This document shows positions 935 to 36,467 of a stretch of 64,000 bases of DNA, in pieces. The notes under the pieces are model-generated. The model ran no database searches and was not told where the DNA came from. It was given only the letters and a program-made list of their open reading frames with translations. Made by a program: the position numbers and the translations under genes. The number at the start of each line of letters is the position of its first letter. Within the stretch, counting starts at the first letter, position 1. The stretch spans positions 9,922,001 through 9,986,000 of the forward strand of contig NC_087245.1 in assembly GCF_037042905.1 (NCBI RefSeq), in the 5' to 3' direction. This stretch comes from Lytechinus pictus (lineage: Eukaryota).

Positions 935-3330
935 CATGGGCGGAAATCCCAGGGGGGACAGGGGGGACGTGTCCCCCCTACTCAAAATAGTAGGGGGGAC
1001 ATAATATCAAATGTCCCCCCTACTATTTTTGGTCTTTAATGATGGTAAGAAATACATCATTCTAAATCGAAATAAAACATTTATTTTGGGACGAGACGAC
1101 CTTACTTTGGCGATGATAACCTTTTTTTTGCTTGTCAAATTTCCCCGCCCCTTGACCCCATAGGCGGATCCAGGAAGCCGAAAGCCCCCCCCCCCCCTTG
1201 GCGGAGCAAAAAAAGGGAAAGAAAGAAGGAAAAAAGGAGGGAAAAGAGAGGAGAAAAGGAAGAGAAGAACGACGAGTGCATAAGATAAGGTGAGGGGAAG
1301 ACTTGGAAAATAAAAAGAATCTTTCGTGCCACTATAAAAAAATTTCGCTCGATCTTCGCGCTCGCATTGCCTGTTGGGTGATTTACATATCTTGTTCAAT
1401 ATGGAGTTGGAATATCAAGTTTGGAACTCCAATATACAAAACGTATTTCACCTCGGAAATCGAACTTTCACTATTTTGTATAATTTACAAATTGGTTTTT
1501 AAAAAGTGCTCTGTAAAAATTTCAGTTTTATGGTCTAAATGTTAACATTTGCTGCTCGCGCTGCGCGCTCGCAAATTTTGATTGATCAGGTACCTATTAT
1601 TTTCGTGTATTCCATAAAGTTTTCAAAATATCCCTTTTCAGGTCTGATTGTCAAGACGTATCAGCTAGTGCGCTGCACGCTCGCATTTTGATTGGCGAGT
1701 TATATAAATGTTTCAGTATTGATTATACAACAAACTACTTAAAATCCCCTTTTCATGACAGTTTATCAAAAAAAATTAGCTCGCGATTTGCGCTCGCATT
1801 AATGGTTAAAAATATATTAACTGATGCATCCTATTCATATAATCACAAAAGTGAAATGTTCAATTTTTATGCCATGATATCATCAGATTTCGCGCCCTCA
1901 TTATATAGGCATTAATAACTATGATATTAATTTAATAATTAAATTGTCCCTTTTGTTTCATCTCGCGCTTAGCAGGAGGAATAGGAAGATAGTCATCATT
2001 TTTATATGATGACATGTCGGAGGGATGTCCCGATCCTATGTCAAAACTCAAAGTAATAATATTTTTAAGTGCGATCCATATCCACCTTACAATTTTTCTA
2101 CAAAGTGCTTGAAATATAAAGCTGAAATTGACTCTTTTTTCAAATCGGAATATCAAAGTTTCATGATTTTCATGATTAAAAATGTATTTAGAATGCCTAG
2201 ATTATAGGTATAAATATGAAACACGTTCGCGCATGTTTATCCAGATACTCAACTTGTTCTCTAATTTAAATCATTATCCAGTTTCAGATTACAATATCAA
2301 AATTTTTCTGCTCACGCTTTGTGCTCGCATTTTTAATGTAGGAAGACCCCATATCACTCATCCTTTTCATGATTTACAAAACATGAACAGAGTGGCCCGT
2401 TTTTAGGTCTAACTCTCGAATTTTGTTCTGCTCGCGCTTCGCGCTCGCATCATAAATCGTTTAATTATATAGCTATCCTGTTCACGATTATAAAACAGTG
2501 ATTAAAAATTTCCATTCTTTCTTTAGAAAGTTAAAAAAAATTCAGCTCGCGCTTGCATTTTTTTATTGTTGAAATATGTAACGCCTTCATGGCTAAGTGC
2601 AAGCAGTACTTAACAGGTACATTTTCAACAGGTACCAGTTCAAAACGTACATAAAAATTTTCTGCTCGCGCTTTGCGCTCGCATTATTAATACTCATCCT
2701 TTTCAGGATTTACAAAAGATGAATAGAGGGTCTCGTTCAGTAAATATTATGGGACTAAATCTCGAAATTTTCCGCTCGCGCTCCGCGCTCGCATTAATTG
2801 TTTACTTATATACCTATTCTGCTTGAGTTACAAAAAGTGCTTAGAATTTCCATTCTTTAGGTGAAAATTTCAAAAAAATTCAGCTCGCGCTTCGCGCTCG
2901 CATTATTTGATTGTTAAATGCTACTTTAACAGGTATCTTTTCCATCAGTTCAATTATGCTCGCGCTTTGCGTTCGTGGTAATTATTAAGTTTGATACACA
3001 TCTTTTTTAGGATAACAAACAATGCCCAGAAACAGTTCAAATTTTAGGGGAAAATACATAAAATTTCCAAAAAAAATTAGCTCGCGCTTTGCGCTCGCAT
3101 CATATAAATAAGGATTATGATATTATATATCAATTAAGAATAAAGCTAAGAAATGACTAATGAGGACTACCCCGTCAAAGAAACAAACAAAAAACATCTT
3201 CGAGCTGCCGATCGGGGAAAATAGGGGGGGGCGGAAATTTGTTTCAGCCCCCCCCCCCCCCCCCCCTATTGGCGAAGGCTGGATCCGCCCCTGTGTCCCC
3301 CCTACCTTTTGGGAGAGATTTCCGCCCCTG
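935..3330. mobile_element. Non-autonomous hAT-like element
   Basis: TIRs catgggcggaaatc / gatttccgcccctg; exact 8-bp TSD aatttggg at 927-934 and 3331-3338; internal gctcgcgcttcgcgctcgc repeats; no transposase. Confidence 0.85.
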
Positions 3331-4121
3331 AATTTGGGGGTAAAAACCTAATGTTTTTTTGCTTGTCAAATTTTCCTCGGGAAATCCTGGATCCGCCCCA
3401 GATTGGAATGTAGAAGATCTAGCTTTAGTAACTAACCGCCCTTTCACGCGGTAAAAAAAATCGTAATTTCAATGATGATTCCAGTGAAAAATAAGGCTAA
3501 TGACGAATATTTAGCACGTGTGAAACCAAACTAGTACATGATTATAAAGATCACAAACACAAATCACAGTCACGATTACATTACAATGATGATTCAAGAT
3601 TCATGAGTGAAAAGGCTCATAGTTTCATTCCGGACTCAACCCTGGCTGGCATTGAGTCCGCATGATATGATCGGCTCTATTGAGTTCGCTGATCATTGTG
3701 AGATCGCTCTGACCTGCTAGCTGTAATCAGTGGATCGAGCTATTACTGAAAAGCGTGAAAAAAAAAATATTGGCTCTAAACCATCGCGTACCGTGGGCAT
3801 AGGCGGCGGAAGCGGGGGGGGGGGGGGGCAGGGGGACATGTTCCCCTTAAGTTCAGGAGGGGACGCCCCCCCCCCTAAAAAGGGGGGAAATGAAGGAAGG
3901 AAGAAAAAAGGGGGAAGAAAAGAAAGAAAGAAGAAAGAAAGAAATAGAAAAGAAGAAAGGAAGAGGAAAAAGATAACCGTGAGTAAACTGAACTGCTGAA
4001 ACAAAGAAATATTAAAACGTATACAAAATGCCCCCTGGAGATATCACAATTCTGAAGCTGCCAGGGGCTTTGCTTCCTAGACCCCACCCGACCGCGGGCT
4101 TCGCGCTACACGAAAAAGAAT

Positions 4122-4318
4122 ATATCGGCATTTTCACGGTAACTGACGTTACACGGCACAATGTATACACTTTTCACTGTGTGTATGATTATCTCTAAAA
4201 CAACAAATGATGGGAGTAAACTCCCATCATTTGTTGTTTTTTCTAATCATAATTTATACACAATGAAAAGTGTATAAATTGTGCCGTGTAACGTCAGTTA
4301 CCATGAAAAAGCCCATAT
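4122..4318. mobile_element. Foldback MITE
   Basis: Near-perfect palindrome centred on gatgggagtaaactcccatc. Confidence 0.75.
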
Positions 4319-4477
4319 GTAAAAAAATAGATAAAATAAATAAAGGAGAAGAGAGCAAGATGCGAAGAAAAAGAAACGTGAATAAAATAAGGGGAGGGGA
4401 TAATTGGAAAATGAAAAAATATCGGGTTATTACATAAAAATGAAAATTTCGCTCACACTTCGCGCTCGCGTTCGCTG

Positions 4478-5006
4478 TTAAGGGTCAAGTCCATCCCAGA
4501 AAATGTTGATTTGAATAATTAGATGCTGAAAATTCCATCAAAATCGGATGTAAAATAGGAAAGTTATGCCATTTTAAAGTTTCGCTTATATTTCCCATAA
4601 AGTGCATGCACAACTAAGTGACATGCAAATATCTCTTTTGTTTTTTTATTGTTTGAATTATACAAATTTTTTAAACAGATTTGGCAATAAGGACCAACTT
4701 GACTGCACCATATAGTATAAAACAATGCTATTTCCATATTTTCAAGGAAAAATTAATCGTTGTTTCACTTGACAATGAGGAGAAAATTAAAATATTTCAT
4801 ATGATAAAATACAAAAGAAATAGTGAGTGGATGACGACATCAGTCTTCTCATTTGTTTGCATACCGATCAGTTTTGTGAAATTAAACGAAACTTTAAAAT
4901 GTCATAACTTTCTTATTTTACATCCGAATTGATGGAATTTACAATGTTATACTTGTTGAATTTTTCTCTTTTTATTAAAATCAACTATTTGTTCGGGTGG
5001 GCTTGA
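4478..5006. mobile_element. TTAA-type MITE, degenerate copy of the 60426-61037 family
   Basis: Begins ttaagggtcaagtccatccc; interior similar to the reverse complement of 60426-61037. Confidence 0.7.
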
Positions 5007-5271
5007 GATAATCTGCTCACTAGGATACCATGGAGCTTTGAATAGGCCCTATCCAATTTTAAAGTCAATATGCACAAATTGTTTTGCTCGCGATTCGAGT
5101 TTCCATTAAATTCTGTTCATGCAATACAAAAAGTACTGAATATAAAAAAAAATCTGCTTGCGCTACGCGCTGGCATTATTTGACAGGCAAATTAATGATA
5201 CGGTCGTATTCTGTTCATGTATTACAGAAATCAGTAATTCAAGGGTTATCGTTTCAAGTCAGTAAATCACT

Positions 5272-5427
5272 TATACCTCGGTCACATTTGCTCTACGGCG
5301 AGTCGAAAACTGCCGTTTTATTCATTTTTATGCAAACCACCTATGTATAGCTGGTACAAAAAATGTTAAAACGGTTGTTTTCGACTCGCCGTACGGCCAC
5401 CGTAGAGCAAATGTGACCGAAGTATTA
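5272..5427. mobile_element. Short palindromic MITE
   Basis: Arms tacctcggtcacatttgctctacgg / ccgtagagcaaatgtgaccgaagta. Confidence 0.75.
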
Positions 5428-5504
5428 CTTTCATCTCTCTCCTCGCATCGATTGTACATGACCGTCATGTTCATCGTTCAAAAAGTGCTTAGAATCTGAG
5501 GTTA

Positions 5505-6420
5505 ATTTGGGTCAGATTTTTTTTTAGCTCGCGCTTCGCGCTCGCATCAATTGTTTAGATAGATACATATCCTGTTCATGGTCATAATAAGTGTATTAGA
5601 ATTTTAAGGTTTGGGTCGGAATATAAAAAATGTTCAGCTCGCGCTTCGCTCTCGCATAAAATATTTAGTTAGATAGCCATTCTGTTCATGATTACCAAAA
5701 GTGCTCAGAATCTCAAAATTTTAGGTCAGATTACAAAAAAAATTCAGTTCGCGCTTCGCGCTCGCATCAATTGCTTAGATAGATATCCATCCTGTTCATG
5801 GTCATAAAAGTGCTTAGAATGTCCAGTTTGGGGTTGGAATAACAACAATTTTGAGCTCGCGCTACGCGTTCGCATAAACTGTTTAGTTAGATGCTCAATC
5901 CTACTCATGATAACCAAAAGTGCTTAGAATGTAAAAAGACATAGGTCAGAGAATCAATCTTTTTTAGCTCGGGCTTCGCGCTTGCATCAGTTGTTTAGAT
6001 AGATACAAATCCCGTTCACGGTAACAAAAAGTGCTTTAGAATATGAAAAACAAAATGTTCAGCTCGCGCTACGCGCTCGCATAAAATGTTTAGTTTAGAT
6101 ACCCATTCTGTTCATGATTATCAAAGTGCTTAGAATGTCTACATTGTAGGTCGGAATATTAAATATTTTCACATCAATTGTTTAGATAGATATACCCATC
6201 CTGTTCATGGTCACAATAGTGCTTTAATAGAATGTCCAGTTTTGTGTTGGAATATAAAAAAAAAATCCAGCTTGCGCTATGCGTTCGCATAAATGTTAGT
6301 TAGATACCCATCCTGCTTGATGACCCAAAGTGCTTAGAATGTCAAAATTTTAGGTCAGGTTATCAAAAATTTTCAGCTCGCGTTTCGCGCTCGCATAAAA
6401 GGTTTATTTTACTATCCTGT
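5505..6420. repeat. Tandem array of about 120-bp units inside the hAT-like element
   Basis: Recurring cagctcgcgcttcgcgctcgcat...tgtttag...atcctgttcatg...aagtgcttagaatg; related arrays at about 2200-3100 and 44630-45790. Confidence 0.85.
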
Positions 6421-9864: not shown

Positions 9865-10112
9865 TTGGCGCCTCAGGACAAACATCAAATAGGTGCTCCT
9901 GTGTCGAACATCAATTCGGCGCCCCTAAGTAAAACATAAATTCGGCGCCCCCCCCCCCCCCCAATGTCGAACATAATTCGGTGCCCCCCCCCCCCTATGT
10001 CGAACATCGATTCGGCGACCCTAGGTCGAACATCAATTCGGCGCCCCCTATATCAAACTAAAATTCGGCGCCCCCAGGTAGAACATAAAGTTTGCATAGG
10101 GGCGCCGAATTT
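9865..10112. repeat. About 30-bp minisatellite downstream of the tetraspanin stop
   Basis: Repeated gtcgaacatcaattcggcgccccc, with one inverted unit at the right end. Confidence 0.8.
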
Positions 10113-10243
10113 ATCTTCAACCTAGGGAGGCGACATGATAATAGTTCCACATACGCCATGTACTTAAAAGTTCATAAGGCGTCGACAGGCATATATTTTA
10201 TACGACGGTTGTCTTGAGATTATTGAACAAAATGGATGTTGCA

Positions 10244-10315
10244 TTAAACTGCGTAGTCGGGGATGTTAAGCTTCGTATTCCCTACCGCACAAATTCCTAA
10301 GATGACACCACAGAT
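10244..10315 (-). CDS. Tetraspanin exon 6 (end of TM4, C-tail, stop)
   Basis: gtttcag acceptor; ICGVILGICAVGNTKLNIPDYAV then TAA. All introns are phase 0; 240 aa in total with 6 EC2 cysteines, CD63/TSPAN6/TSPAN7-like. Confidence 0.9.
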   Translation of the reverse strand: MCGVILGICAVGNTKLNIPDYAV

Positions 10316-10912
10316 CTGAAACAAAACAAAACAATATTAATATAATGACACCTTTTTTATTATCATTATCAAATTAGACGAAGTCTTTTATTAGCTTTCC
10401 GTATCACCATGATCATTAAGCTCTTTGGTCTATTTTGGCGACAAATAAATTTATATACCCCCGACATCACCATAAACAAACGGAAATTCAATAAAGATAA
10501 TCAAAAAATTAAGATTGATTTAACGAAACGAAATGAATATGCGGCGAATGTGTACACCAGTGGTCTTATTTCAAATCACATCAATGTGTAAAATACTCTT
10601 CGGCACACATTTTGTGGGTTATGATTGAAAATAGTCAAACATCGAGAAAAAAAAACTTCATAAATTAATATTTGCCTTCACATTCCGGCCATCTGTAATA
10701 ATAATTACAACATCCAAATATTGAAAATTGTTTAATAAGTTGAAGCTGGGATACAATATCAGGTACTGGGCCAATAAACAAATAAACCAAATAGATATTA
10801 CGTAAACAGGACGAAATACATGTGGATAAATCTTCATATTGAATTTGATCCGGGTAGAACCACTTTTGAAAGCATGACCATGATCCAAATTTGTCAGCCA
10901 GCGATTACTTAC

Positions 10913-10996
10913 GTTAACAAAAGCAACGCCAATCGCGAGTCCTGCAATAATTTGAATTTGATCTCTCAGTAAATCTTGGACTGCGGAGTCGCAGGG
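10913..10996 (-). CDS. Tetraspanin exon 5 (last EC2 Cys and TM4)
   Basis: ttttcag acceptor, gtaagt donor; 84 nt; PCDSAVQDLLRDQIQIIAGLAIGVAFVN. Confidence 0.93.
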
Positions 10997-11379
10997 CTGA
11001 AAAGGAACAAAACAGCGGTCAAATCAATCGGAAAAGTTTATTATTTTGTTTATATGATACAAAAAATTCCCATGATGGTGATATCATTGATGATAGTGAT
11101 GATAAATTGTTAATGATACAGTAGTACAGTACTATAATGATAAACGTAGTAGTAGTGGTAATACTAATACTACTACTACTAATAATAATATTAATAATAA
11201 TAATGACAATATAAAGAAGATTTTATTAAATTTACAACGTATAGGACTTAATTAAAATGTTTCTAATAACAAGGACCCTTGGTCGAGCAGTTCTTGTAAC
11301 TGAAAGGGCTACCCTGTTAAAATAAGACCACAAATAAACAAATCAATTGCTTATTTAGTTAATCAGATTGAATTCTTAC

Positions 11380-11523
11380 GTTTGTATGTATGTCGAAAGT
11401 AGCTGAGCCAATGATGTTACAGCCAGGAGTTTTTAATTTACAGCATGAATAAGGTACAAGTTCTGGTTGATCCTTAACCCAGCCCATCCAATCAGTGTAG
11501 TTATGAACTCCGCAACACTTTAG
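11380..11523 (-). CDS. Tetraspanin exon 4 (EC2, CCG motif)
   Basis: aag acceptor, gtaaga donor; 144 nt; LKCCGVHNYTDW...VPYSCC...PGC, the tetraspanin CCG/DW/PxSCC signature. Confidence 0.95.
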
Positions 11524-11736
11524 CTTTAATGGAAAAACACAATGAGACATTGAACAAACGATTGAACAATGATATATCAACAGAAGTTTTATGTAATAGT
11601 TTCTTCTTAGCTTTATATTCTTCTAAACAAAATAAGTACAACCTTTTCAGCATTCTATGATGGCAACATCAGGCCCAAAGAACAATCTCTACAATTTTTT
11701 TTTTATCTCATTAGCCCTTATTTTAGCGCGAGCTCA

Positions 11737-11771
11737 TTTTTTTTTGGTAAACATAATGGAAAAGATTTATT
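11737..11771 (-). terminator. Polyadenylation signal and genomic A-tail of the RPL41 copy
   Basis: AATAAA at 11771-11766, followed 20 nt later by A9 at 11745-11737, about 450 nt after the RPL41 stop. Confidence 0.7.
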
Positions 11772-12214
11772 ACAGGCTGATACACCACAACAGTTTTTGA
11801 GTGAAAGATGTAAAAGTATGCAATAAAAACAACCACAAAGGGCACAGCAATCTAGCACAATGAATTAATTTGATGAAGATTGATTTATCTTGATATTAAG
11901 ATGGAATGTTTTAACAAAAATAATGGGAGAGCGTCTGTATAGCATGATGAAGTCTATCAATGTTTCCATCCATAGCAACAAAGGCCCAGTCATCAACAGC
12001 TTTCATGAGAACCAATTGATTTCACACAGGATGCAGCCAAGGATGTCTTCATGGGTGAGACAAGACCTCGCGGTGATAGGAGTATTGATGCACAAAAGTA
12101 TAGGCTCTGGGATGGTGAGGAAGTAAGGTTGTGAAGAATGAGAATTATCTTAATAAGTCCCTATTCAACAGCAAAAGTGCGATGCCCGGAAGAGTGGCCT
12201 TTCCTGGTGGCAGT

Positions 12215-12292
12215 CTACTTGGACCTGGCACGCATCTTTCTCCTCTTACGCTTCAGGCGTCGCATACGTTTCTTGCGCCACTTATCCCTCAT
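12215..12292 (-). CDS. RPL41: Ribosomal protein eL41 (RPL41), intact intronless ORF; probable processed retrocopy in tetraspanin intron 3
   Basis: Translates to MRDKWRKKRMRRLKRKRRKMRARSK then TAG, essentially the conserved 25-aa eL41 sequence. Identity is secure; functionality is unknown. Confidence 0.9.
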   Translation of the reverse strand: MRDKWRKKRMRRLKRKRRKMRARSK

Positions 12293-13322
12293 CCTCTAAT
12301 TCTAAGTATTAAAACTTCTTTTTAAGGTACTGGAAGTTTGAGGTGCTGATTATCCTTCAAAAGAAGGATCTAAACAGATTTGGGAAGCAACAACGAGCGA
12401 TGCCTTGGTAAAGAGAAAGCTGATTGCTTGTCGTCGCGAGTTCAATTGTTCTTTTAATTCCAAGTACTTTATCCTGAAAGTTTAACATTTTGAGCTATAT
12501 TTGTGATCAAGAAAATGATCCTGTTCTAACTAAACATACACACAAGAGCTTTAATTTTTAATTCACTGACCAGAAAAAAGGACCTGTTAAGGAGTGTTTA
12601 CAATCATGAAGACGATACGTATCTAAACATCAAATAATGCGAGCGCGAAGCGTGAGCTGAAAACGTTTGATATTTCGACCTGAAAAATTGAGAATTCTAA
12701 GCGCTTTTTGTAATCATGCACATATAGGTATGTAACTAAACGAATGAAGCAAGCGCGAGCTGAATTTTTATAAGATTGAGCTAAAAACGGAGTTCTCTCA
12801 ATGGACACTTCCGTCTTTTGTAACGACCGCTTCAATATCTCAGTAAGATGTTATAGGTTACTTTTGCAAAGACATGAGTTTCAGAAGTTTCAAATCGTAA
12901 TATTCATAGAAATTATTTTGAAATTAACAAAAGAATTTGGGTCAATATATTTCGATGAAAAAGATATCTACCAATTTATTTTTCTACAGAAGCCGGGTCA
13001 CTTGCATATACCAAGGATTCACAATAAATCCAGATCTGGCGGCGGTGAATATGCCTAGCAACCAGCTGAATATTAGATTTAGCATTAAACCTTGTAGATT
13101 TAAATATATAAAGCTAAAAGATTTAAATTTAAGTCTTCTGTGATTTTAAAGTTATTCCCTAAGATAAAAAGTAAACGAATTTTTTTACTGAAAAGTATGC
13201 ACAGCCGATCTGAATTCATTTCAAATCCTTGAGATTTAGAATGTATTCTTTATGTTTCTCGTTGTGTAACCATATATATTTTCTCTGTTGGATTTGAATT
13301 CGAATTGAGAAATTTAATATAC

Positions 13323-13493
13323 CTCCTGTTGCAAGCTATCGAAGATTTCTTGGGCCGATTCAGTTGTATTGTATTTGATCTGTATCTCATCCATGTTATC
13401 TTCGATCACTTGATCAATTTTATCACGAAGGAGATACCCAGAGATACCAGCAGCTAACTCCAGAATTAGAAGAATAACCAGAATGGAGACAAA
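13323..13493 (-). CDS. Tetraspanin exon 3 (TM3 and start of EC2)
   Basis: cctag acceptor, gtatat donor; 171 nt; FVSILVILLILELAAGISGYLLRDKIDQVIEDNM...IFDSLQQE; absent from the ORF track. Confidence 0.93.
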
Positions 13494-14303
13494 CTAGGAT
13501 ATCAAGCAAAATTATGATTTTCATGAAGACACGATAGAGTAACAAAAAAACAAACATATCGATTCCAATATCATTTGATTATGTAAATGAATTATTATTA
13601 AAATTAGAAAAATATTATCGACATCCAGCTATATTATCACCACTCGAAGGAGATTGGTGGTATCAACATCAAAAACTCTGAAGTCATAAGTCCGCTTTTC
13701 CTGTCTACAAAATTGGACATAACGGACATGGGTTATCAGTTATCATGTGATCTGAATTTCAGGTCATTTGATTATGGTCAAAACTATAAAGACATCTGTA
13801 TAAAAAGAATTGATGAAACATATTTCTTCTTTCAAACCTAGGCCTATATAAATCCAATCATTTTCTTATTCCTTGATGCTTGATAGAAAATGGGTGAGGG
13901 ATGCTCATAACCATTTTTAAGTATGTTTTACATGAAACATTGACAAAATATCATATTTGAATATTGAAATATTTTATATTCAAAATTATATGGCAGCGCA
14001 GTGGAATATGGTAGACTACCTAGATATTTCGTCATTTAAAAAGTAGGGGTTATGGTCATTACAATAGTTGCACGGCCGATGCCTATGTTTTGTCTCATTT
14101 CTTCCCTATTTTTTATCTTGCCCCTTTATTCTTTTTTTACGCTTGAGAATCATAGGGGTGTCACCCCCTGCCCCCTTCCTGGTAGAGATGCACAGCAATC
14201 TTTCGTTATTACATTTCAATGTGCATTTTTATACAGATGTTATTTCTTACAAAATATCGTGGTCCATATACATGATTAAATTCATAAATCGATAGAATCT
14301 CAC

Positions 14304-14492
14304 CGGTTTGAGCATGCGTCGACTTTCCCTGCAATTTCCACAGAACCCTAAAATTGAGACAAGACTCGATATAATCCCAACCGTGATTAAAATCACAGGT
14401 ATAGCGGTACCAGAATCATAAGTGAAGTCAATATATCCACGGTAGACATTCAAGGTGAGAATACCTACTATCAAAATACTGATGCCCAAGAG
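14304..14492 (-). CDS. Tetraspanin exon 2 (end of TM1, EC1, TM2)
   Basis: ttccacag acceptor, gtgaga donor; 189 nt; LLGISILIVG...ILGFCGNCRESRRMLKP. Confidence 0.93.
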
Positions 14493-15372
14493 CTGTGGAA
14501 AAACAAACAAAATAAAAGAACAATATCCAACTAATTTCATGTAGAGTTTCCACTCTACTGAATAATTAATAAGTCAAGAAAGATGTCTTATTTGACAAAA
14601 CAACCTAATTCATGTTCATTATCTCGTTACTTCAATAGCTAAAAAAATCATTTATTTTTTATCAATGAATTTTTATTTGCATTTCAAATAAATGTCTATC
14701 ATCACAAATATTTCCAATGTCTACGACTGTTGACATTTTCACATTGAACTAGAAATCAATGAATAAGAAATAATAAACATGATGCTTATTTGTCATGTGT
14801 GTTAAAAATGTATACATTAATTTTTAGCAACAATCATTACCGTTTAGCACCCTGAAATATTAGGGGAAATGAAAGAAAAAAATAGATTCCACATTTTTAA
14901 TCAAAGTTTGTACTTTTCTGAGGGAAATAAGCTGTTACCATGGCAACGGGCCAATTGGAACTATTTTGATGACCTTAAATATTTTTTAATTTCATTTATA
15001 TTTGATTTAAGATGAAAATTAATATTGGGTAATCTATAATCATGTTTATCTACCATTTACAGGGGAAAACATGTATCAATCCGTTTCTATGGCGACGGTC
15101 AAAGACAACAATCAGATTCGTATTCAGTACCCTAAAAACAGGGGAATAGGGAACAAACACGCAAAATATGATTCTATAGATTTTGGGGGAATTCCCTACT
15201 TGCCGCCTGTGATATTATGCGTTGGATGATAATCGCATAATGTCATTTCCTGCGACAGTATTATGCGTCGCTATACGACATTCTTGGTTGTAACAATGCC
15301 TACAACACGTACAAAGCCATGTAGCACCAAGGGAGCACCACCAGTTTAGGCTCGCTGTCCAGCATTACTTAC

Positions 15373-15435
15373 TAAAAATACCACATTGTAGAAACACATC
15401 AAATACTGACACGCCCTACTCCTGAACGATTTCAT
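15373..15435 (-). CDS. Tetraspanin exon 1 (N-terminus and TM1)
   Basis: aaaaATG start; MKSFRSRACQYLMCFYNVVFL then gtaagt donor; 63 nt, phase 0. In-frame upstream ATGs at 15531 and 15564 could extend the N-terminus. Confidence 0.85.
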
Positions 15436-18400
15436 TTTTGAAAGCCCGATCCAAAAGGCTAGATCCTTTTTCACAATTCCTGTTGCGGATAGAATGCTTT
15501 CTCTCAAGCAGACTGCCTTGAGCTTGCTCATGTCTTTCAGCTCATCAGTCGCGATGTGAATCATGTTTGCTTTCTCTCTTTATAGGCTTGGGTCGAGATA
15601 TCGAAATACATATTTTCCTATGCAAATACGAAGCATCGTTCTTTTTTTTTTCTTATTTCAATGGGTGTTCTGTGCATTCTCGTACCATGCATGGTCGCTT
15701 TCATAAACCCACATTTCTTGATCATCAGATCAATCTACCATTCCCTCTTTGTCGGTCACCATTCCAGGGTCCACCATTGCAAACGGGTCGCTGAACGGTT
15801 TTGAAAGCAGGGGAGGCTGATCGAGGCACCCCCCCCCCCCCATAGTTGCGTACGAGAGAGAAAGGGGTAGAAACGTTTTGTCTTCAAGAATCTAAATTTA
15901 GAAATTACGCCAAACATGTATAAATATTGATTTTCGTGGCTTGATAAAGGGGCGCTGATTTTACTCAGATTTTCCCTTTTCGACGGGAAAAGTTTTGTTT
16001 TTTTACTATGATCTTTAATATTGACGCTTATTGCGTGAACACCACCATAAAATTGTTGGACCACTTCCGCTGATCGGCAAATTTTATTTTCATCAAATTT
16101 GGTTCTTGCCTGTGCCGGGATATTCAACAACAAAAAAGAATAGAAAAGAGAAAGGTTCCATTTTCTTTCTTTCTTTCTTCTATGGAACATGAAGTTCGCG
16201 AAATTGAAAGCCAAGATATTTGGGCCTAAGTTACCCCCCCCCCTGAAATTCCTCTTGATTTCTCCATTAAAATTCATGTAGATTTCATTGACTTTTTTCG
16301 TTTGACGCCGCTGATAATGGGATTATGGGTCTACTGTCGAAAATTGAACATTTTCTGATTGTTCTGTTCTATATGATTTTTCATTTGTTGTCATGATATT
16401 GAGATTTGAGAACCATTAATTTCATTGATTTTGAAACAAAAAAAGAAGCAAATTTGCAACATGAGCTCGAGATTGCATCTGTTGGATTTATTAATGTTTT
16501 GTTTTATTTATTCACCATCGTCTTGTGATATAATTATAGTCAGGATGAAGATTTGTATTTAGGGGAATACTGCTAGTTTCTCATACATACACCGTTTTCA
16601 TGTATCTTGTTGCTCTATTGCGGGCTCTATTGTTCGTTCTTGAGACCAGATCATTTTGAACACGATATCGCCACACAAAAACCCGAACACGAATTAATGG
16701 TATTATGACAGTCGGGATTCAAAGAATGACATCCTAACCTTGATATACTACTTTTTTTTGCCTGGTGATTGTGGTCGAATCAGTGAATTGGTCATTTTGT
16801 GTTTCTGCACGTATCAGGGTATCCTCTTTTGATCACAATTATTCTTGACCTCGTCACTTTATATTCTGTGGGGTATCATCATCAACATCAAAAATGAAAA
16901 AAAAAAAAAACCGACAAAATTACATACAAAGGTGTCAAGATGCTGAATAAGCACATGTTTCGCTATATTTCTTTATTCTTGACCAGCTCTCACTTCCTTT
17001 TTGATATTGTTGTTGCATGCACGTTAATCCCATCCGTTATTCATCTTCAATTACTCCTCCCATTCCCGACACTATCTTTCTCCCCCACCCTCTCTTTCTC
17101 ACATCCTCAATACAAGCGCACGCATTTACCTCATCTCCTCCTAACTCCAACTCTCTCCTTCATATTTCACCCCCCCCCCCCAAAAAAAAAAAAAGAAGAG
17201 AGAGAAAAAAATGAATTTCCTTAATGTATTTCATCATTTCCTTCCTTTATTATTCATTAGCCAGGAATATCCTGCTAAGACCACAAGACAATGCAACCAA
17301 ACAACTCATGATTTAATTTCATCAAATTATTGCACTGACTAATATGGTTTATATGAGGTATTGTACAGCCTATTTATTTTTTAAGCCTCAATTGACATTG
17401 ATAACTTTAAGCATAAGTGATGTATTTGTCCAGAAATTACTGTTGATATTTATTATCTCTGCATGTGAATGGTTGATAGTTGAAATTATCATCTGCATTC
17501 ATAGAAATAACAATTTGTATTTTGCCCCCATCAGGTCTTCAAAAAGTTTGACAGTCTGTTACAGGATATGATAATGTTAGTTTACACACAAAAGAGAAAA
17601 TCAAGATGCAACTTTGAGAAGTGAAATACACTTCATTGTATAGCATGACTCATTCAATTACATATTTTCACATACATGTACTTTATATTTTATTGATGAA
17701 TACAATATCCTCAGTTGTTGAAGCATAAAAGTAATAAAGATAGGATTGGAATTAGTACATATACATCTTTATTTCAGAGTAATTATTTGAGCAATCAAAA
17801 GTCTAAATATAGCATATGAATCTTCCAATAAAAATATTCACATTAAATATTTTCTGTTTGATTTATACACATTGATATTCAATATTATATATGATCAAAG
17901 GAATTTTAGAAATAAAAACCACATGTTTAAGGAGTAAGAGATATCCCGAATTACCCCCTCCCTTACACATCTAATTTTTGGAATGCAGACAGTTCTTTGC
18001 CCCTCCCCCATTTCTTGAGTCTGAATTATTGACACAGACCATACTATAACAATACATGAATCAAGCATACACGCCAAATTGTTAATAGAGAATTTGGGGG
18101 AAATATGTGTACTATTATATGGGACTGATCACAAATAAAAGAGGTATATATTTATTTAGCAAGACTGAAAAGGGATATCATTCAGAAGTGATAAGAAAAT
18201 CTGTTTTTAAGTTAATATATTCAGGGGCATCATCAGGGTATTTTTATTGTTTGGGGGGGGGGGGGAGGCAAGATGAACAAGGTAACATCCCCCATCTGGG
18301 CATTACTGAGTAACATAACCTAGCCATATCTTTCTTCACTCTTCCACTTTTCTTTGTTTTGCTACTTCAAAACCCACGTAACACTACCATGAATATAATT

Positions 18401-19447: not shown

Positions 19448-20255
19448 TCACCTTTTGACTAATCCCTTTAAGTTTTCTTGTAATCTGGCAATATCATCAT
19501 CAAGCTTTGATAAGCCTACCTGAAACTGAGCCTCATACTGTGATGCTATTGATGATATAGTTGACTCGGATACAACTGACCCTACCTCAGCGGCATTGAA
19601 TATTCTACCAAGGTCTCTCTCCGAGTGTTCATTTCTCCTATTCAACCTTGAATCACTTCTCAATGTAGATGGTGAGGATTGCTTATCATACCCTGTCCTC
19701 CCTAAGCTATCAGAAATATGTGCATTTCCACCATGTGGTACATGCTGTCTCGCTGACTTTGTTGCTGGCGACACCTCCTTTTCTACCCAGTCAGGTATGC
19801 CGCCACCACTACTAGTTCTATGGCGCGAGGTGTGGAATAGATAGGGCTTCCGATTGCCAATTCGGGGATCAGCAATGCTCATATACGCTGTCCCATCACG
19901 GTCTAATGTGTCATCCACAAGGGTAGAGTCTAAATCATCATATCTCCCATCCGCTCCAAATTTATCATCCATTTGAGATGGATTAAGTTTTTCTGAACCT
20001 CCAGTGAAGACAAAATTATGATCCAAAGAGCCTTGATGATCAGGGACCTGCCAATCTCCTGTGGGTAAAGCATGAGGAGAAGAGCGTTGATGATCAGAGA
20101 TCCTCCAATCTGACATGTGTAATGCATTAGGAGAAGAATGCTTGGTGGTATGATCTTCTTGCGATGATGACGACAAGGAATAAGATGACAAAGAATCATG
20201 CGGTGACCTTTGACATTGTCTCAATGCTGTTTGGAGACCATCAAGTGAACCATTT
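19448..20255 (-). CDS. CCDC14: CCDC14-like terminal coding exon
   Basis: tttag acceptor in phase 2 joins the 258-aa ORF; ends EAQFQVGLSKLDDDIARLQENLKGLVKR-stop, like the CCDC14 C-terminal motif. The nine exons sum to 3370 nt in one frame. Confidence 0.9.
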
Positions 20256-22391
20256 CTAAATTGAAATAGAAATTATGGGAAAAGGAATGGCAATTATTTA
20301 GAATTACACATAGAAGAGATGAAAAGAGAGACACACAATACAGTAAAATGCATTAAAAAATTATATAGATTACTCAGTATATATTACTGTATCAAATCCA
20401 TGTACATTCCAAATCAAATGGCATGGACTATATTTTTCAATACAGTGAGTGTGCTACAAATTGGAAAGAGGAGTATAAATTCCTTAATGACCTTCTTTTA
20501 GTCCAAGGCTTGAAGCCTTAAACATAGTTCAGCAAATATACTTTTACTAATTTTGTTTGAGAGTACAAAGTACACTGAGTTTGTAGACACTAAGACACTA
20601 TAAAGGTTCATAAACACAATTTTTTCAACCCCTTTGTGTGATGACTATTAGACATAAGAAAATGTTTATTAGACTACAATTAATTATGGTGATGTTATCA
20701 ACTTTCTACATGAGTTCTTGTAACTTCATTTATTTACAAGAATGTCACCCATGTATTCAATCTGCTTGTACCTTAAAACGATTTGATAGGATTTGATCAG
20801 GATATCATTTTACAATTTCTCTGAGACTTAGCTAAAGGCTGAATCCACCAAGATTCCAATAGGAAGAAGTACAGTAGATTGTTCAAATGATCAAATAACA
20901 CCAATTACATAACAGCTGCATTACAAATAATGAAATTACAACACTTTCAAGTCTGATTTTGATATTACTGTGCACAAGCACGTATTCAAGTTTTGAGGGT
21001 CATGAGCTGACTGCATGCAACATCATTAACAAATATTACAAAAACCCAATATAGTTTTTTTTTACTTTAATTACTTCTTTTTTTTTTAATGTTTTTATTG
21101 AAGAAATCAAAACAAATCACAAACAATCACAAGCAATCAAAACATTTACAAAATATTGTATCATTAAACAAAACAAAACAAAAAAGGAGGAAATAAAAGA
21201 AATAAAAAGGCAGCCTTTTTATATCCAATCTTACATCAGCTCTAATCACTTATGATTAACATGTAGGATTTTATAGATAAAAGAAATCAAAATGGAGCAG
21301 TCACACCTGTCCCAATATCAAAAGTGTCATTGTAGAGAAGCTCGATATAATATAAAATAAATTAATCTGTGATATAACCTCTGCAAACGAGGGCAAAAGT
21401 TGCATGATAATAAGACAAAACCATACACTCTTCAAATGTTGAGTAAAAGAGAGAGACAAAAAAAAATTATATTAAAAAAAAAAAAACATTAGCGGGTAAA
21501 AGGGAGGCATGCAAGTCTGCTGGGAAAAATTTAACACAAAACTTAAATTTCACATAAAAATATGCACATTCCAAACCCAATAAAACATGCACAGCTCTAG
21601 TGCTGTAAGGCAAAGCTGTGAAAGGTCCGGACGATCGCCGAAACGGCGATCGTCCGATCCGATCACAGCCTCCCCGTCGATCCATTCTCTCGTTATGATT
21701 GCGTAGTGATCTTTACTTTACTTCTTTAGAAAAGGATACCTTTTAGTTCTCTATGATATATTGGAAAGCATTATTAAAGAGGTATTCAACCCCAAAGGAA
21801 CAAGAGAAATGAGACAAGTAGAAAGGTGAACATTTTAATAATATTCGACTAACAATAAGAAAGTTACACAATTTGAAAAGTTGTCAAAATTTGTATTACC
21901 TATGGAGATAAAATGTCACTTTTTTATAGTTTTACTTCAAATCATTTTTTTAATTAGGACATAAGGCAATATGCTACCTGTATAATATTCTGATTACTGC
22001 CTATAAAGAGGAATTGGTACTTAAGAGTAAACCACAAATGCCTGTCAACTAAGTACATGCATGGCCTATGGGAAAGTCATCCATACCAGTTACCCAGTTT
22101 CCAATTTGGAATTAAGTTTGTCTTACGGATCTTAAAGTCCCACTGCACCTACGGATGCAGAGAGGATGTCAAACGGATAAGAATCTTGCCATCCATTGGG
22201 AACGTTATGTGTTTTTTGTGTACTCTTTGCATACGTGTTTCATACGCTCTATATCCATCAAGCATCCATCCACTATAATTTCATTGTTTGCCCATTTTGT
22301 CCATTGTCTGGAGCGGATGGAGCCACCCCAAAATTTTGCTTGTCCGCTGTATCCGTTATGAATATGTTTTGTGTCCGTCGGCCAGTGGGAC

Positions 22392-22553
22392 CAGGGGCCC
22401 GTTTCATAAAGGACTTGCAACTGTTGTAACTTTGCCATTATGGCAACTACCATGGTAACCTTGATTTTGAATGACTGCTGAGCCTGTTACCATGGTAGTT
22501 GCTATAATGGCAAAGTTATAACAGTTGCTAGTCCTTTATAAAAAGGGCCCCAG
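22392..22553. mobile_element. PIF/Harbinger-like palindromic MITE
   Basis: gggcccgtttcataaaggact ... agtcctttataaaaagggccc, flanked by 3-bp CAG duplication; relatives at about 30245-30405 and 34720-34865. Confidence 0.75.
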
Positions 22554-22966
22554 GCCTTTACTGGTTATCTGATTTCTTTCAAACTTTCTTCATTCTGTTT
22601 TACTAATTTTTCTCCTCTTCCACAAAATGTTATAACCAAAGTTGGTAATACAAGTTATACACCTATGTACCATGATAAGGAGATCTAGAAAATTTGTACA
22701 ACCTATACATTGAAAATCAAACAATGAAATCAATACTTGCAAAATACTTGAGGTAGATAAAATTAAATCATAACTAAGATGACTAAAACTTTATTTTGGC
22801 AAGCTACTTGATTTGACAATAAAAATGAAGCATGTGATTGTAATGCCTTTGGTCTATGTTTCACTTTCCTTTCAGAAATCTTTCTTTCTCTCTCTCCCCA
22901 TCATTCCGCCTTTCTCTCTCCCCCTCTTTCTCTCCCTCCCCACACCTCTCTTTAATAATCAATACA

Positions 22967-24646
22967 TAGGGGAAGGCGGGGTAAGTTGAGCATAGGGGCA
23001 AGTTGAGCCACCACCCCCAGGCTAAGAATGAATGAGTCAGACATTGTGGTGGTGTCATGCATTGATGACCCATTACATAACCCTTGACCCCACCACATTG
23101 TTTTCAACTTTGAAACAAAAAGTACTTTTTTAGAGGGAAAAATACAAATTTCAGCCAAAAAAGTAAAAAAGGGTGTGAAATTGATCAGTGCTTTTTACCC
23201 ACACACGTTTTAAAATATAATAAAGAAATAAGAACAATATTGTTAGTCCAGGTATGGATTCTCATTCTTGTCATAAGTCTTTTACATGATGGATGCATAA
23301 GAAATGTGTGGATGTGAAAATATCGCATTAAGTTTGGACTGGGGTAATTTGTGCCAGCCAACATGGGGCAAGTTGAGCCATGGTAATTCTTATGTTAATG
23401 TATAATAAAAAAAAAAAACCTTAAAAAAGCCATTGATATGCAGGCAGAACAGAGCAAATTCACATGACAGTTCTTTTACTTTTAGAGGATGTAATAATTA
23501 TAGAGAATTAGCAAAAAGACTTTAAATAAAAATTGACATGCCGGTTCTTCCCGCATACATTTATTTACATAGTTTTTGTGGCTCAACTTACCCCAGAAGG
23601 TGGCACAACTTACCCCACAGATGGGGTAAGTTGAGCCATTTGACATCGTTTTTTTCAAAGGTCACAAAGACTTTCAGTGTGGGGGTAGAAAATTATATAC
23701 AGTGCGTCCCAGAAAAAACGAAACCGAGATTTAGCGATGATTTATCATAACTTAATCACAAATAAAATAGACAAATGACCTACCAATGTAAAGCTTAGAA
23801 TCTCCTCTTTCATCTGATATTAATTAGATTATTTCTCCTTCACGCATGAGTGAGCAAAAACAATTTGAAGAGGGGATACCAAAAAGTCATTTGGCGGGTT
23901 GTATCTAGCTTTCAAAAGGAAAACCACATTTTTAAAAAGTTCAATATCTGCTCTTTAATTTGATACCTCAATTACAGAAAATGGTCAAGAAATAACAAAG
24001 TTCTGGTTATTTGAAATAAGGCTTGAATTTTAATAATTTCATAAAATGAAGAGGTTTTACAGGCTAGCGTTCAAACTCACTCGACACTCCGTTTTGTTTG
24101 CGATCAGCCATGCATTAAGTCTTTTGTTAACCATGCGATAGCTTCTGTGGGAAACCGGTGAAAACAGTTTATTTAATGAAATTATGGAAATTCAAGCCTT
24201 ATTTCAAATAACCAGAACTTTGTTATTTCTTGACCATTTTCTGTAATTGAGGTATCAAATTAAAGAGCAGATATTGAACTTTTAAGACATGTGATTTTCT
24301 TTTTGAAATTCATATACACCCCGCCAAATGAGTTTTTGGTATCCTTCCTTCAAATTGTTTTTGCTCACTCATGCGTGAATGAGGAATAATCTAAGTAATA
24401 TCAGATGAAAGAGGAGATTCTAAGCTTTACATTGGTAGGTCATTTGTCTATTTTATTTTTCATTAAGTTATGATAAATCATCGCTAAATCTCGGTTTCGT
24501 TTTTTCTGGGACTCACTGTATAGGTGAAAAATATTTCTGAAGAATCAAACTTAAAGGCAAGGTACTTAATTCTTCAATATTATTAGTCATATCAATTCTA
24601 ACATGCAAAATGCAAAAAGTGTCACAACTTACCCCGCCTTCCCCTA
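22967..24646. mobile_element. TA-flanked non-autonomous DNA transposon
   Basis: TIRs ta-ggggaaggcggggtaagttg / caacttaccccgccttcccc-ta. Confidence 0.85.
23700..24518. mobile_element. Tc1/mariner-like foldback MITE nested in the previous element
   Basis: ta-cagtgcgtcccagaaaaaacg ... cgttttttctgggactcactg-ta; inverted arms over 300 bp. Confidence 0.88.
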
Positions 24647-26676
24647 CTCATCCACAAGAAATTATGACATAAATATAAAAGAAAATAATTATGCTTATGA
24701 TTCTCTGCATACTATCAGAACAGCTGAATGTTTCAGGGTCATATGCAGAAAAAAAATCACTCAAAATATGCTAAAATCTCCCCCCCCCCTTTGCATGTAA
24801 AAACCCTCTCTTTTCATCAAGAGGTAGTAAAGATAGAAATCTATTCATTAATCTGATTATGTTAGAGTGTACTTGAAAGTCTATTCCTTAACCTTCAATT
24901 GTAATGCGATAAGTGTTTGCTCGGGCTTGGACCAATTATCTACCAGTATCAAATCCACCTGAAATCTATGGTTGAGCAAACACAATTAAACATGAAATGA
25001 GAGTGCAGTATAGGGCTATTGGCGTGTATACTGGACTCCAGTTTGACTGACACCATGGTCTACTGGGCTACAATTAATATATGGGTAACTATTAGTGTCA
25101 AATGTTTGTTTATATACTGAATGTGTCTTGCGAAAGTACTGGGATCATCCCCATGTCTCTATGGTGAAGAAAACTATTTCATATATAATTTCCGGATGGT
25201 TTTTAATGCTTAGAGTGCCAAATAGGATTATTTACCACTCGTCAGATGGAACACCCTATCGAAAAATGCTGTTTTTCATTGGGGTCCATACACACAAATA
25301 TACAATCATGGACTTACTATTAGGTCCATGATACAATCAAACATGATGATAACAAAAGCACAAAATCATGAATAATAAAATATTGGTAAAACAAACACAA
25401 ACAACAGATATGGACGTTTGTGTCACATTTGACCATAGAGCCAGTAAACCACAACTTTAAACATTGGTTTAAGTTTAACCGGAGTTAAGAATACAGGCCT
25501 TTATAATGAAGATGACAGAACTGCAAAAATTTGCAGTTTCATGGTATCATATGTACACATACATGTTCAGTCATTCTAAATGTATCTGAAAGTATAACTC
25601 TTTAAAGAGCGATCACTTGACTAGATATCACTATCATGGGGAGAGGGATAATACCAGCATAATAATATATTTCATTTATCATTGAAGATTTCCCTACAGG
25701 ATATACACATATACTACATCTTTCAGCTGGTAGAAATGCAACCCATATGGCCAAGAAGCTCAATGCAAGAGGGATGTTTTCAATACCCTCCACAGCTTTC
25801 AAGCACATATAATCACATGGTACTTTATCAATGCTTAACTTACAGGCACTTATAGGAGATAATAAGAAAAACATTGGAAAAATATTATTATTAAGTCCAT
25901 CCTGACATAAAAACATCTACTAGTTTCACTATACTTTCCCCATAGTCTGGTATATCTGTATACTCTTGTCGATTTTAATACACAACTGCAGCTGGCAAAC
26001 ATGTCATTGACCATATGAAAAATACTATGTAAACAATAAAGAAGCAGACATACAATAACCTTTATAGAATTTCCATAGACTGGAAAAAAAATCAGTATAA
26101 TTTAACACTGATATGATAGGTAATGCACATCCTTTTGGCAAGATTTAACCAATGCGGTGATGTCTTTTATACAGATCAAAACTGGGAATTTGAGTGCAAA
26201 TTTAAGTCTCACTTAATTTTTTGTGAAACACCCCTCCCCCTGCATCAATGAGAGCTTATAAGATTAAACATAAAAATGATTTATGGCTACACATATCAAG
26301 TAATACATTTAAAGCATGTGATACATCACACAATATTTAGTAATTGTGCAATAAGTTATCCCGTGCATTTCAGATTTATTGAGAAACATTTTACTTCCTT
26401 TTGAAAAAAAAAAAAAATCAAAGACTCCATTGGTATCAAAATGTTATAAACTACAAAGCAAGACAATGCAAATTTTATGCATTTTCACAAGTTGCCAAAA
26501 AAAAAAGGAAAAGGAAGTACCAGTAACCAGCATTGCTCTCATTGTATTACATACAATGAATTTATTCAGGCCTATATGTATAAAAGCACATTATTTTCTA
26601 AGCCCATTAATTTGATTTTTTTTAAAGCAAAATTTCACTTTCACTTGATGGAATCTATGCGTTATAAAAAGCATAC

Positions 26677-26805
26677 CTGTTTGAAGTGATGGATGACTGA
26701 TGATTCTCCAACCAATTCTCAAGTCTAGATTCCTTGCTCTCACCAGGAAGAGATGATTTCAATGATTTACCAGGTGCCACACTCGATATAATACCTTGCA
26801 TATTC
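26677..26805 (-). CDS. CCDC14: CCDC14-like exon
   Basis: tttcag acceptor, gtatgc donor; 129 nt; phase 2/2; NMQGIISSVAPG... Confidence 0.8.
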
Positions 26806-27074
26806 CTGAAAGAAATAATTATCATCTTTACAGAGTAATTGAGCAGTGCATGATTTTGCCTGCACAGTATCAGAACATACTGCACAATTATGAATAATGA
26901 TCCTTAAAAGATGGTAATAATCATAATGGATGTCTTTATTTCATGGGTTAAAGGAATATTCCACTTGTAAGGGCCATTATTGCCCTCATCTATGCTTCAT
27001 GCAATATGCGCCCGAACTAGCTGAATATTTCTGGTATTCAGTTCTGAGCCAGCCAATTTGATATGTATATATAT

Positions 27075-28018
27075 TTAAGGACGTTCCACAGTTATGTTTG
27101 TGCGCATTATGATCTGCGCATAGTTTACACTCTGCGCGCTGACGTCACAATGGATGAACAGGTGATTAATTAGCTGCGGGTATGAGCTGATTTTTCTCAT
27201 CTTCTGCACTTTAACTGCAGATCCGATACCTTATTTCATGAAGCTAAAAAATTGAATTATTCCATGGACCATTAAAAAAAAAATTCTCTACAATTTCAAA
27301 ATACTTTACTCTGCAGTGCTGCCAAGAATCACGAATATTACCCCGAGTTTGAATAAATGGTAGAGTGGTTTTGATTTTTTCTTCACATAGATACAAGGGA
27401 TTCGGCGCATTTTTGGTGTTTTAAAAAGCACATTTGCTCTAATAAAAATGCTGATAGTTTAAAAACAAGCACATGAACCCCTATTTTTTAATGTTTGTAC
27501 CTCTTAGGTATACCCTCCTCTACAACTCTGCAAATTTTGGTGAAAATGACATGGATTTTAAATAAAGTGCAGCATTTGTTGTACGTTTGTAGTTTGTGGC
27601 TGAAATTTTACATTTTTTAGATTGGGATTTTGTTATCTTTTACGCCATTTTAAAGAACTGACAGTGCTGTTAAACTTAAAATTGCAAACAAATAGCACTT
27701 TAAATAGATTCTCTATTCTAACGATACAATTACTAACTCTCTCGCGAAATTTGATGACTTTTTCATGTATTTTGACTGAGTAATACAGGTTTAAACTCAT
27801 TGTAGTAAACTTGGGCGGTCTAAAAATGCCAAATTCTTTTGAATGCGCAATTCTAAAGAACATTCATTTAGGTGAACTTTGAAGCTCTATAGCAAAAAAT
27901 CAAGCACATGGACCTATGTTAATTTTTGCATATTTCGAATATTAAGGTTCTTAATTATCTATGTGCAAAGTTTGGTGAAAATGACATGGATTTCACTTTA
28001 ACTGTGGAACGTCCTTAA
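27075..28018. mobile_element. TTAA-flanked non-autonomous DNA transposon
   Basis: Perfect termini ttaa-ggacgttccacagtta / taactgtggaacgtcc-ttaa. Confidence 0.85.
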
Positions 28019-30595: not shown

Positions 30596-30789
30596 CTTGT
30601 CATCTGTTGCAGTCTCTTGATCTCTGAATCTCTCTGCTTCACACTCTGTCTTAAAATATCTTTCTCTTTCTCAACAGCCTCAGCCCTAAGATTCTCAGAT
30701 TCCAGTTGAGATTTTAGCTTAGTGATCTCTTGACGCACTGTGCTTGTTTCCAGAGTCCAACTTTTTCTCTTCTCCTTTAGATCATTGTC
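30596..30789 (-). CDS. CCDC14: CCDC14-like exon (coiled coil)
   Basis: tttag acceptor, gtacag donor; 194 nt; phase 0/2; EKEKDILRQSVKQRDSEIKRLQQMT. Confidence 0.87.
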
Positions 30790-31625: not shown

Positions 31626-31674
31626 CTGTCAATGAAAAAAAATCAGAACTTATAATACAATTTAATGTCACTAT

Positions 31675-36419: not shown

Positions 36420-36467
36420 CTGCACAAGAAAAAAATACACACAGTCAATACTTTGTAGGCTGAAGGT

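Follow-up and report, generated by a model that had tools for sequence, protein, structure and literature searches.

We identified, in the third intron of a tetraspanin gene of the sea urchin Lytechinus pictus, what is most probably a full-length copy of the mRNA for ribosomal protein eL41 (gene RPL41). The element occupies positions 12419 to 11737 of the window, the 64,000-nucleotide stretch of contig NC_087245.1 analysed here, and all coordinates below refer to that window. It lies in the sense orientation within its host intron, was probably inserted by a LINE-type reverse transcriptase, and appears to be inactive as a source of protein. Taken separately, the retrocopy origin of the element is very likely and its inactivity as a protein gene is likely.

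The coding sequence of the copy (12215 to 12292, minus strand) consists of 25 contiguous codons and a stop. The initial annotation had described this 78-nt open reading frame as encoding a 25-aa eL41 peptide; translation of 12292-12215 returned the peptide it had given, and the identification was confirmed by a match to Pfam Ribosomal_L41 (PF05162) over positions 1-25 of 25, the full length of the model. The score of 46.5 bits against a cut-off of 22.3 (E 3.5e-12) excludes a chance match. Comparison of the peptide with the PDB retrieved 30 sequences at E up to 1. Position 3 had been singled out as Asp where vertebrates have Ala, and Ala3 is indeed present in the commonest eL41 of the PDB (305 entries), but Asp3 is parental and not a feature of the copy. 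It is carried by the best PDB match and by the eL41 of the solved structure 7pzy, and the abundant mRNA of a relative (organism B, see below) has an identical coding sequence, which together rule out Asp3 as a copy-specific change. Specifically, the coding sequence of the window shows 0 differences from the organism-B contigs, records 19 and 20 of run X6 (11749-12389) and records 15 and 16 of run X4. The exact protein was absent among about 15 billion proteins, which is uninformative for a 25-aa product, and a 31-nt pattern from the coding sequence and UTR gave 0 loci in metagenome contigs. The lack of any Rfam family within 10000-16000 rules out the element as a hosted snoRNA. The protein itself forms bridge eB14 of the ribosome, and null mice are described as viable in an excerpt of PMC13485352.

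Transcript evidence came from 24 listed sequencing runs, 20 of which hold part of the window and four of which (X1, X4, X6 and X24) were aligned to 11340-13560. Of the alignment output, the listings discussed here cover 40 of the 105 difference rows, 15 of the 18 joints, 24 of the 221 loose ends and 24 of the 727 contig pieces. X24 consists of raw RNA reads, with a quarter of the run read, and X1, whose library type is not on record, holds spliced cDNA; marine metatranscriptome runs (shares 0.14-0.23) were left out and not counted as evidence. Because X24, X6 and X4 carry organism-B alleles, only X1 represents the species of the window. X1 is the run closest to the window, with 172 of 172 positions identical in host exon 3 and, in the intron, 139 of 139 in one piece and 9 differences in 758 nt in another.

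The copied mRNA reaches about 127 nt beyond the 5' limit of 12292 proposed at first, to 12419. Its 5' UTR (12293-12419, minus strand) is 127 nt long and free of upstream ATGs, with mRNA depth on 12293-12389 in X24, X6 and X4 and as far as about 12416 in X4 and X6. Although no 5' pyrimidine tract had been noted initially, a run of 10 nt is present at 12419-12410, 127 nt before the ATG and close to where the X4 and X6 contigs end, and this run is likely the TOP/TCT initiator of the parent. It matches the mammalian ribosomal-protein initiator consensus (Y)2C+1TY(T)2(Y)3, as given in an excerpt of PMC554972, at 9 of 10 positions with C+1 at 12415; a second 9/10 match at 12366, inside the UTR, makes the motif weak by itself.

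The 3' UTR (11746-12214, minus strand) is deeply covered by mRNA down to 11749 in X24, X6 and X4, all three of which contain a deep organism-B-type RPL41 transcript on 11749-12389. The AATAAA (11771-11766) and the A9 (11745-11737) of the initial annotation are both present, 20 nt apart, but A9 is probably mostly target duplication and not tail. AATAAA followed by A9 occurs as 6 matches on both strands of the window, two of them at adjacent positions, and is weak evidence alone. A9 starts where an X4 contig is polyadenylated, this contig following A9 and adding 12 more A past 11737, and parent-like contigs carry other sequence there; the run appears to combine a remnant of the tail with the A-rich beginning of the 3' target copy. 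X24 molecules end at 11775 and 11749. In X4, X6 and X24, homology is limited to the mature mRNA, with the match running from about 12416 to 11749 and no further.

Continuations unlike the window in two runs, together with two versions of the 3' UTR in X1, indicate that the parent gene lies elsewhere. Record 19 of X6 (1529 nt) and record 2 of X1 (1268 nt) match the window over 491 and 298 nt, respectively, down to 11749 and then continue for about 1 kb with sequence unlike it. Given that contigs either diverge or are polyadenylated at the end of the element, we conclude that the element ends at the poly(A) site of the mRNA and lacks the downstream DNA of the parent. X1 holds two versions of 12014-12230: one, at depth 24.3, shows 12 differences from the window, and the other, at depth 9.2, shows 2. 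Five sites have the letters of organism B in the former and those of the window in the latter. The description of the element as a processed copy is thus supported by parent-like sequence that differs past the poly(A) site, by the two X1 versions and by the departure of most organism-B mRNA at 12389. The depth of 24.3 is oddly shallow for a ribosomal-protein mRNA, and the parent-like version in X1 could itself be another copy. The additional 1 kb beyond the main poly(A) site in the X6 and X1 contigs suggests a long 3' UTR form of the parent or read-through.

At the 5' end, 1233 reads of X24 part from the window precisely at 12389 and continue in a different 5' sequence, whereas the X4 and X6 contigs stay with the window for 27 nt past 12389, to about 12416. 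The simplest reading is a parent with two alternative first exons; in the window, the pyrimidine-led one directly abuts exon 2, with no intron between them. On the evidence of these breaks, 12390-12419 would represent a parental first exon joined directly to the next exon at 12390/12389. Contigs also break at 12281 (nt 12 of the coding sequence, X1) and 12258 (nt 35, X4), although variants or errors can also break contigs. Vertebrate RPL41 has introns within its short coding sequence, and the two breaks coincide with what we take to be the positions of these introns; we found no text in the literature that states them. The mammalian L41 gene has its AUG in exon 2, according to an excerpt of PMC554972. 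Judging from the contig and read breaks, the copy has likely lost the parental introns, at 12390/12389 and probably after nt 12 and 35 of the coding sequence.

The RPL41 mRNA of the relative has two 5' forms joining at 12389. The leader without the pyrimidine tract is dominant in X24, where there is no depth on 12390-12464, and in X6; the pyrimidine-led form is abundant in X4 and accounts for about 1.5% of depth in X6. Use of the TOP and non-TOP first exons may switch with stage or tissue, a possibility that could be of more interest than the retrocopy.

The flanks of the element carry a degenerate duplication, where the initial annotation had reported no target-site duplication. The 5' copy (12420-12455, core 12447-12435) starts at TT/AAAAG and lies just before the pyrimidine tract, and the 3' copy (11717-11745, core 11739-11727) starts with A9; both are read on the minus strand. 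The cores are identical at 11 of 13 positions and the alignment can be extended to 29-36 nt with an indel. The local score of 11 was reached in 77 of 5000 random pairs, in 37 of 5000 when the 3' side was fixed and in 261 of 5000 without the A-run. As the segment shared by the flanks starts with A9, most of A9 is probably target DNA. The duplication is more diverged (2 of 13 in the core, several more distally, and the indel) than the 2.3% decay of the copy (see below) predicts, and we consider the flanking segments to be probably a degenerate target-site duplication.

The insertion interrupts a repeat. Its upstream part (12435-12772) is a degenerate array of a unit of about 110 bp that is common in the window, with blastn identities of 69-81% to many window copies in alignments of more than 100 nt, and its downstream part (11595-11724) is colinear with an uninterrupted copy at about 57211-57367. 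Blastn aligns 12464-12513 and 11595-11635 with this one copy and a motif search adds 11724-11707, with 13 of 18 positions matching, the flanks following the order of the copy throughout; a three-way alignment places the same segment of the 57.2-57.4 kb copy in both flanks. Gapped blastn of the reconstructed empty site gave no single match spanning the junction. Decayed arrays of the repeat, with a GCGAGCGCGAAGCGCGAGC-like core, occur at about 1350-6400, 12435-12772, 44600-46500 and 57200-57430 and reach a summed depth of about 9000 in X1 and X4. Intron 3 also contains two further small repeats. One (11643-11688), past the 3' end of the copy, appears as a 46-nt piece at high depth; the other (13036-13202) includes 165 nt that are skipped in an X1 contig of depth 101.7, which possibly stems from other repeat copies.

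We propose that RPL41 mRNA would have been inserted by target-primed reverse transcription at an A-rich site, leaving a degenerate duplication of 13-36 nt, and that a LINE-type reverse transcriptase was the likely agent. The TT/AAAAG start of the 5' copy resembles the LINE-1 nick motif 5'-TTTT/AA quoted from PMC4859970, and a tail and a duplication are named in an excerpt of PMC5470649 as accepted hallmarks of retrocopies when other signs fail. The window contains a reverse transcriptase remnant at 49468-50782 (minus strand) with overlapping frames (RVT_1, 82 bits and 17.5 bits), probably from a decayed non-LTR element; it indicates that such elements occur in the genome and has no tie to the RPL41 insertion.

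Two alternatives would dispense with reverse transcription. The element might be the only RPL41 gene of the species, intronless and nested in the tetraspanin intron; its coding sequence is identical to that of the expressed mRNA and it has a pyrimidine initiator. The initial annotation had named a sole RPL41 locus with its own transcription start as the case in which this would be a true nested gene, but X1, despite its perfect agreement with the window in exon 3 (172/172) and over 139/139 positions of the intron, also contains another version at greater depth, as well as a contig departing from the window at the poly(A) site. The element, moreover, splits a repeat, and its terminal A-run coincides with the polyadenylation site of the mRNA; we regard a sole nested gene as extremely improbable. 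A duplication at the DNA level, or capture by a transposon, of an intronless parent would account for the degenerate target duplication, the scarcity of true tail and the repeat-derived flanks. It would hardly produce an element whose two ends are transcript ends (about 12416 and 11749) and which contains none of the downstream DNA of the parent, so that we give this explanation next to no weight and retain reverse transcription of the mRNA as the origin of the element.

The substitutions in the copy bear on its age. Comparison of the window with two X6 contigs gave 23 differences, all of them listed, and removal of those at 12146 and 12150 as indel alignment artefacts left 21, all of them within the 563 UTR nt, with the 78-nt coding sequence free of differences. 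Eight of the 21 are common to the window and X1 against organism B. Compared with both the X1 parent-like contigs and organism B, window-only substitutions number 13 in 563 UTR nt (2.3%) and 0 in 78 coding nt. The X1 parent-like contigs have about 14 private differences, a figure taken from totals of which the listed rows cover part. The copy, the X1 parent-like version and the mRNA of the relative are thus related as a near star (13, about 14 and 8), and as three sequences form an unrooted star, the eight shared letters cannot date the copy to after the split from organism B. The earlier suggestion that the copy is possibly young receives weak support: with 2.3% window-only substitutions and near-star distances, it is not very young, and its age would be close to that of the split from organism B, as opposed to a fresh insertion. 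The copy is present in at least two haplotypes: the window alone carries a replacement at 12142-12154, a net gain of about 9 nt found neither in organism B nor in either X1 version, and the flank in an X1 contig spanning the 5' junction shows 4 or more differences.

The reading frame had also been described as intact, which it is, but its integrity is not evidence of function, since under neutrality a frame of this length would be free of disabling substitutions with P=0.81. At 2.3%, 1.8 changes are expected in the coding sequence, P(0) is 0.16 and Fisher's test of 0/78 against 13/563 gives p=0.38, the coding sequence being too short for power. The absence of coding substitutions is nevertheless compatible with selection, with p=0.095 in Fisher's test against all 21 differences from organism B.

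The host is a CD63-like tetraspanin gene on the minus strand with six exons, canonical GT-AG introns and a product of 240 aa, of which 223 are identical in the CD63-like protein of Lytechinus variegatus and 135 in a Strongylocentrotus protein. Gene models, supplemented by protein comparison for exons 1, 5 and 6 and by Pfam for exon 2, place coding exon 1 at 15373-15435, exon 2 at 14304-14492, exon 3 at 13323-13493, exon 4 at 11380-11523, exon 5 at 10913-10996 and exon 6, with the stop, at 10244-10315. Exon 4 encodes the CCG motif of the large loop. Intron 3 (11524-13322, 1799 nt) holds the retrocopy, as originally reported, and its joint (11523/13323) is supported by one X1 contig and 1 X24 read. 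Exon 1 is one residue shorter than in the L. variegatus match, and the 17 differences in 240 residues are rather many for a close relative. A 26-27-bp tandem repeat at 10000-10089 lies about 155-245 nt downstream of the tetraspanin stop, and an X1 spliced contig has a length compatible with termination within this repeat. Exons of a CCDC14-like gene (19448-36444), likewise on the minus strand, lie some 4 kb upstream of the tetraspanin gene, with a match to Pfam PF15254 of 74.7 bits at 32854-33168 and a weaker one at 19448-20272; an open frame of 461 aa at 35059-36444 on this strand has no Pfam hit.

The copy had been suggested to be still expressed, and we find that it is, but apparently in a passive manner. 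Copy-specific letters are present at 5 of 5 diagnostic sites in a contig of X1, the one run with such letters, at a depth of 9.2; upstream intron contigs have depths of 2.8-14.8 and the spliced host 10.6-11.3, contig depth being a poor measure. Another X1 contig extends from 12515, in the flank, across the 5' junction and into the copy. Neither a transcription start of the copy nor expression above the host background was seen in X1, whose contigs cannot show starts. We therefore favor, tentatively, a copy that would have no promoter of its own and be transcribed only within host pre-mRNA. RNA reading into intron 3 is not expected to yield eL41, as a stop follows two codons into the intron and 12 further ATGs, all downstream of the intron-3 donor, come before that of eL41. 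Ribosome footprints within the coding sequence would not be assignable to the copy, as it is identical to that of the parent. Splicing of host exon 3 into the copy was considered on account of two acceptor-like AGs (12295, which would give an in-frame eL41 fusion, and 12403, after the pyrimidine tract) and is not supported, with no such joint among the 15 of 18 listed.

Could the copy instead be a working second eL41 retrogene, transcribed from the retained pyrimidine initiator or a new promoter? A precedent exists in mouse Gm10076, according to an excerpt of bioRxiv 10.1101/2025.03.17.643322, and the urchin copy has a full-length 5' end with a TOP-like tract, 0 coding substitutions, an intact poly(A) signal and the X1 contig with copy-specific letters at all five diagnostic sites. 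That contig, however, is as deep as the host intron, and another enters the copy from the flank with no separate start visible. The DNA upstream is a decayed repeat and not the promoter of the parent, and neutrality would be expected to leave the frame intact. At least 99.5% of X24 reads have the parent letter at the diagnostic sites 11895, 12055, 12175, 12200 and 12302, though the relative may lack the copy. On balance, we consider a working retrogene very unlikely.

A further possibility, which would add to the retrocopy reading, is that the host uses the poly(A) signal of the copy, producing a composite terminal exon in which exon 3 is prolonged by 1.57 kb of intron 3, up to an end at about 11746. 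In X1, a contig of 758 nt branches from the exon-3 donor into intron 3 at a depth of 6.25, compared with 10.6 for the spliced form, and contigs continue on 12595-13352, 12486-12624, 12281-12515 and 12014-12230, with the bins 11565-11639 and 13515-13560 empty. The X1 contig joining exons 3 and 4 is unbroken at the intron-3 acceptor, and none of the listed pieces crosses from intron 3 into exon 4 or from intron 2 into exon 3. Spliced contigs of 545 and 561 nt fit unbroken exons 1-3 and 4-6, which, from their lengths, would leave a branch at 1 of 10 exon-intron borders. The coverage in X1 has the shape that defines a composite terminal exon in an excerpt of PMC10227441. The intron-3 donor is the sole one of five without a G at +5, and a retrocopy of RPL32 is described in an excerpt of PMC2584115 as having become a new 3' exon of RPS29.

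These observations come, however, from shallow contigs of a single run of unrecorded library type, and the ends of RNAs are not visible in contigs. A-runs of at least 8 (A9 and A10) occur in intron 3 and in none of the other four introns, so that oligo-dT priming on pre-mRNA predicts the same pattern; AATAAA occurs in all five introns, and the intron-3 donor matches at 6 of 9 positions, like three others. No copy-like contig for 11749-12014 was found among the listed pieces, and none of the 3 hits obtained from 41 candidates was a 143-aa form. In Drosophila, nested poly(A) signals on the same strand are mostly silenced, according to an excerpt of PMC3890989. The X1 pattern thus reflects either intronic polyadenylation at the signal of the copy, which we regard as possible but doubtful, or priming on the A-run. 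Poly(A)+ RNA of urchin eggs has been reported to contain interspersed repeats (cited in an excerpt of PMC2114458), and RNAs of this read-in type may therefore be commonplace.

Each reading of the locus has a known precedent. The human genome has about 8000 processed pseudogenes, with ribosomal-protein mRNAs as the most abundant source (excerpt of PMC4859970), and 22 human RPL41 pseudogenes are cited in bioRxiv 10.1101/2025.03.17.643322, as excerpted. The urchin element resembles such pseudogenes in deriving from a highly expressed ribosomal-protein mRNA, in having its 3' end, marked by an A-run, at the poly(A) site, in its candidate A-rich target duplication and in the absence of parental flanks. 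It differs in its echinoderm host, its full length to the pyrimidine tract, its degenerate duplication and its near lack of a tail. With mouse Gm10076, an Rpl41 pseudogene reported in the same preprint excerpt as a working second eL41, it shares an intact 25-codon open reading frame at a second locus, missed by the size limits of annotation. Whereas expression comparable to that of Rpl41 and a knockout phenotype are reported for Gm10076, the copy-specific sequence of the urchin is found only at host-intron depth and in one run.

Like the RPL32 retrocopy that serves as an alternative last exon of human RPS29, an intronic ribosomal-protein retrocopy could give its host a new 3' end, but the RPL32/RPS29 case, as presented in PMC2584115, is a spliced exon with ESTs and the urchin case would be an unspliced extension of exon 3 whose candidate RNA end comes from contigs only. 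The intronless Drosophila retrogenes RpS10a, RpS15Ab, RpS28a, RpL10Aa and RpL37b are likewise invertebrate ribosomal-protein duplicates made by retroposition; an excerpt of PMC2246290 reports purifying selection and, for most duplicates, cDNA support, whereas the urchin copy shows no significant constraint. We found no report of this locus in the literature searched, which lacks most subscription papers, and no echinoderm survey among the 15 of 143 papers listed on sea urchin retrocopies. Among non-chordate invertebrates, an excerpt of the retrocopy review PMC5470649 names only insects and nematodes. RetrogeneDB applies an alignment floor of 150 bp (PMC5509963), and copies with a 78-nt coding sequence would thus be missed.

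As a retrocopy, the element matters little in itself, ribosomal-protein mRNAs being the commonest source of human processed pseudogenes according to PMC4859970, as excerpted, but it provides an example of mRNA retroposition operating in a sea urchin. It is possible, though doubtful, that the retrocopy also acts as a terminator that diverts about one third of tetraspanin transcripts to an end in intron 3. Read-through from exon 3 stops after two codons in the intron, and the product would be a 143-aa tetraspanin with three predicted membrane helices and no CCG loop; the output of the full-length protein would be lowered. If the read-through in X1 reflects true polyadenylation, the locus would be a compact, species-limited case of a pseudogene altering the output of its host, in which a neutral-looking pseudogene retunes a membrane gene in an urchin lineage.
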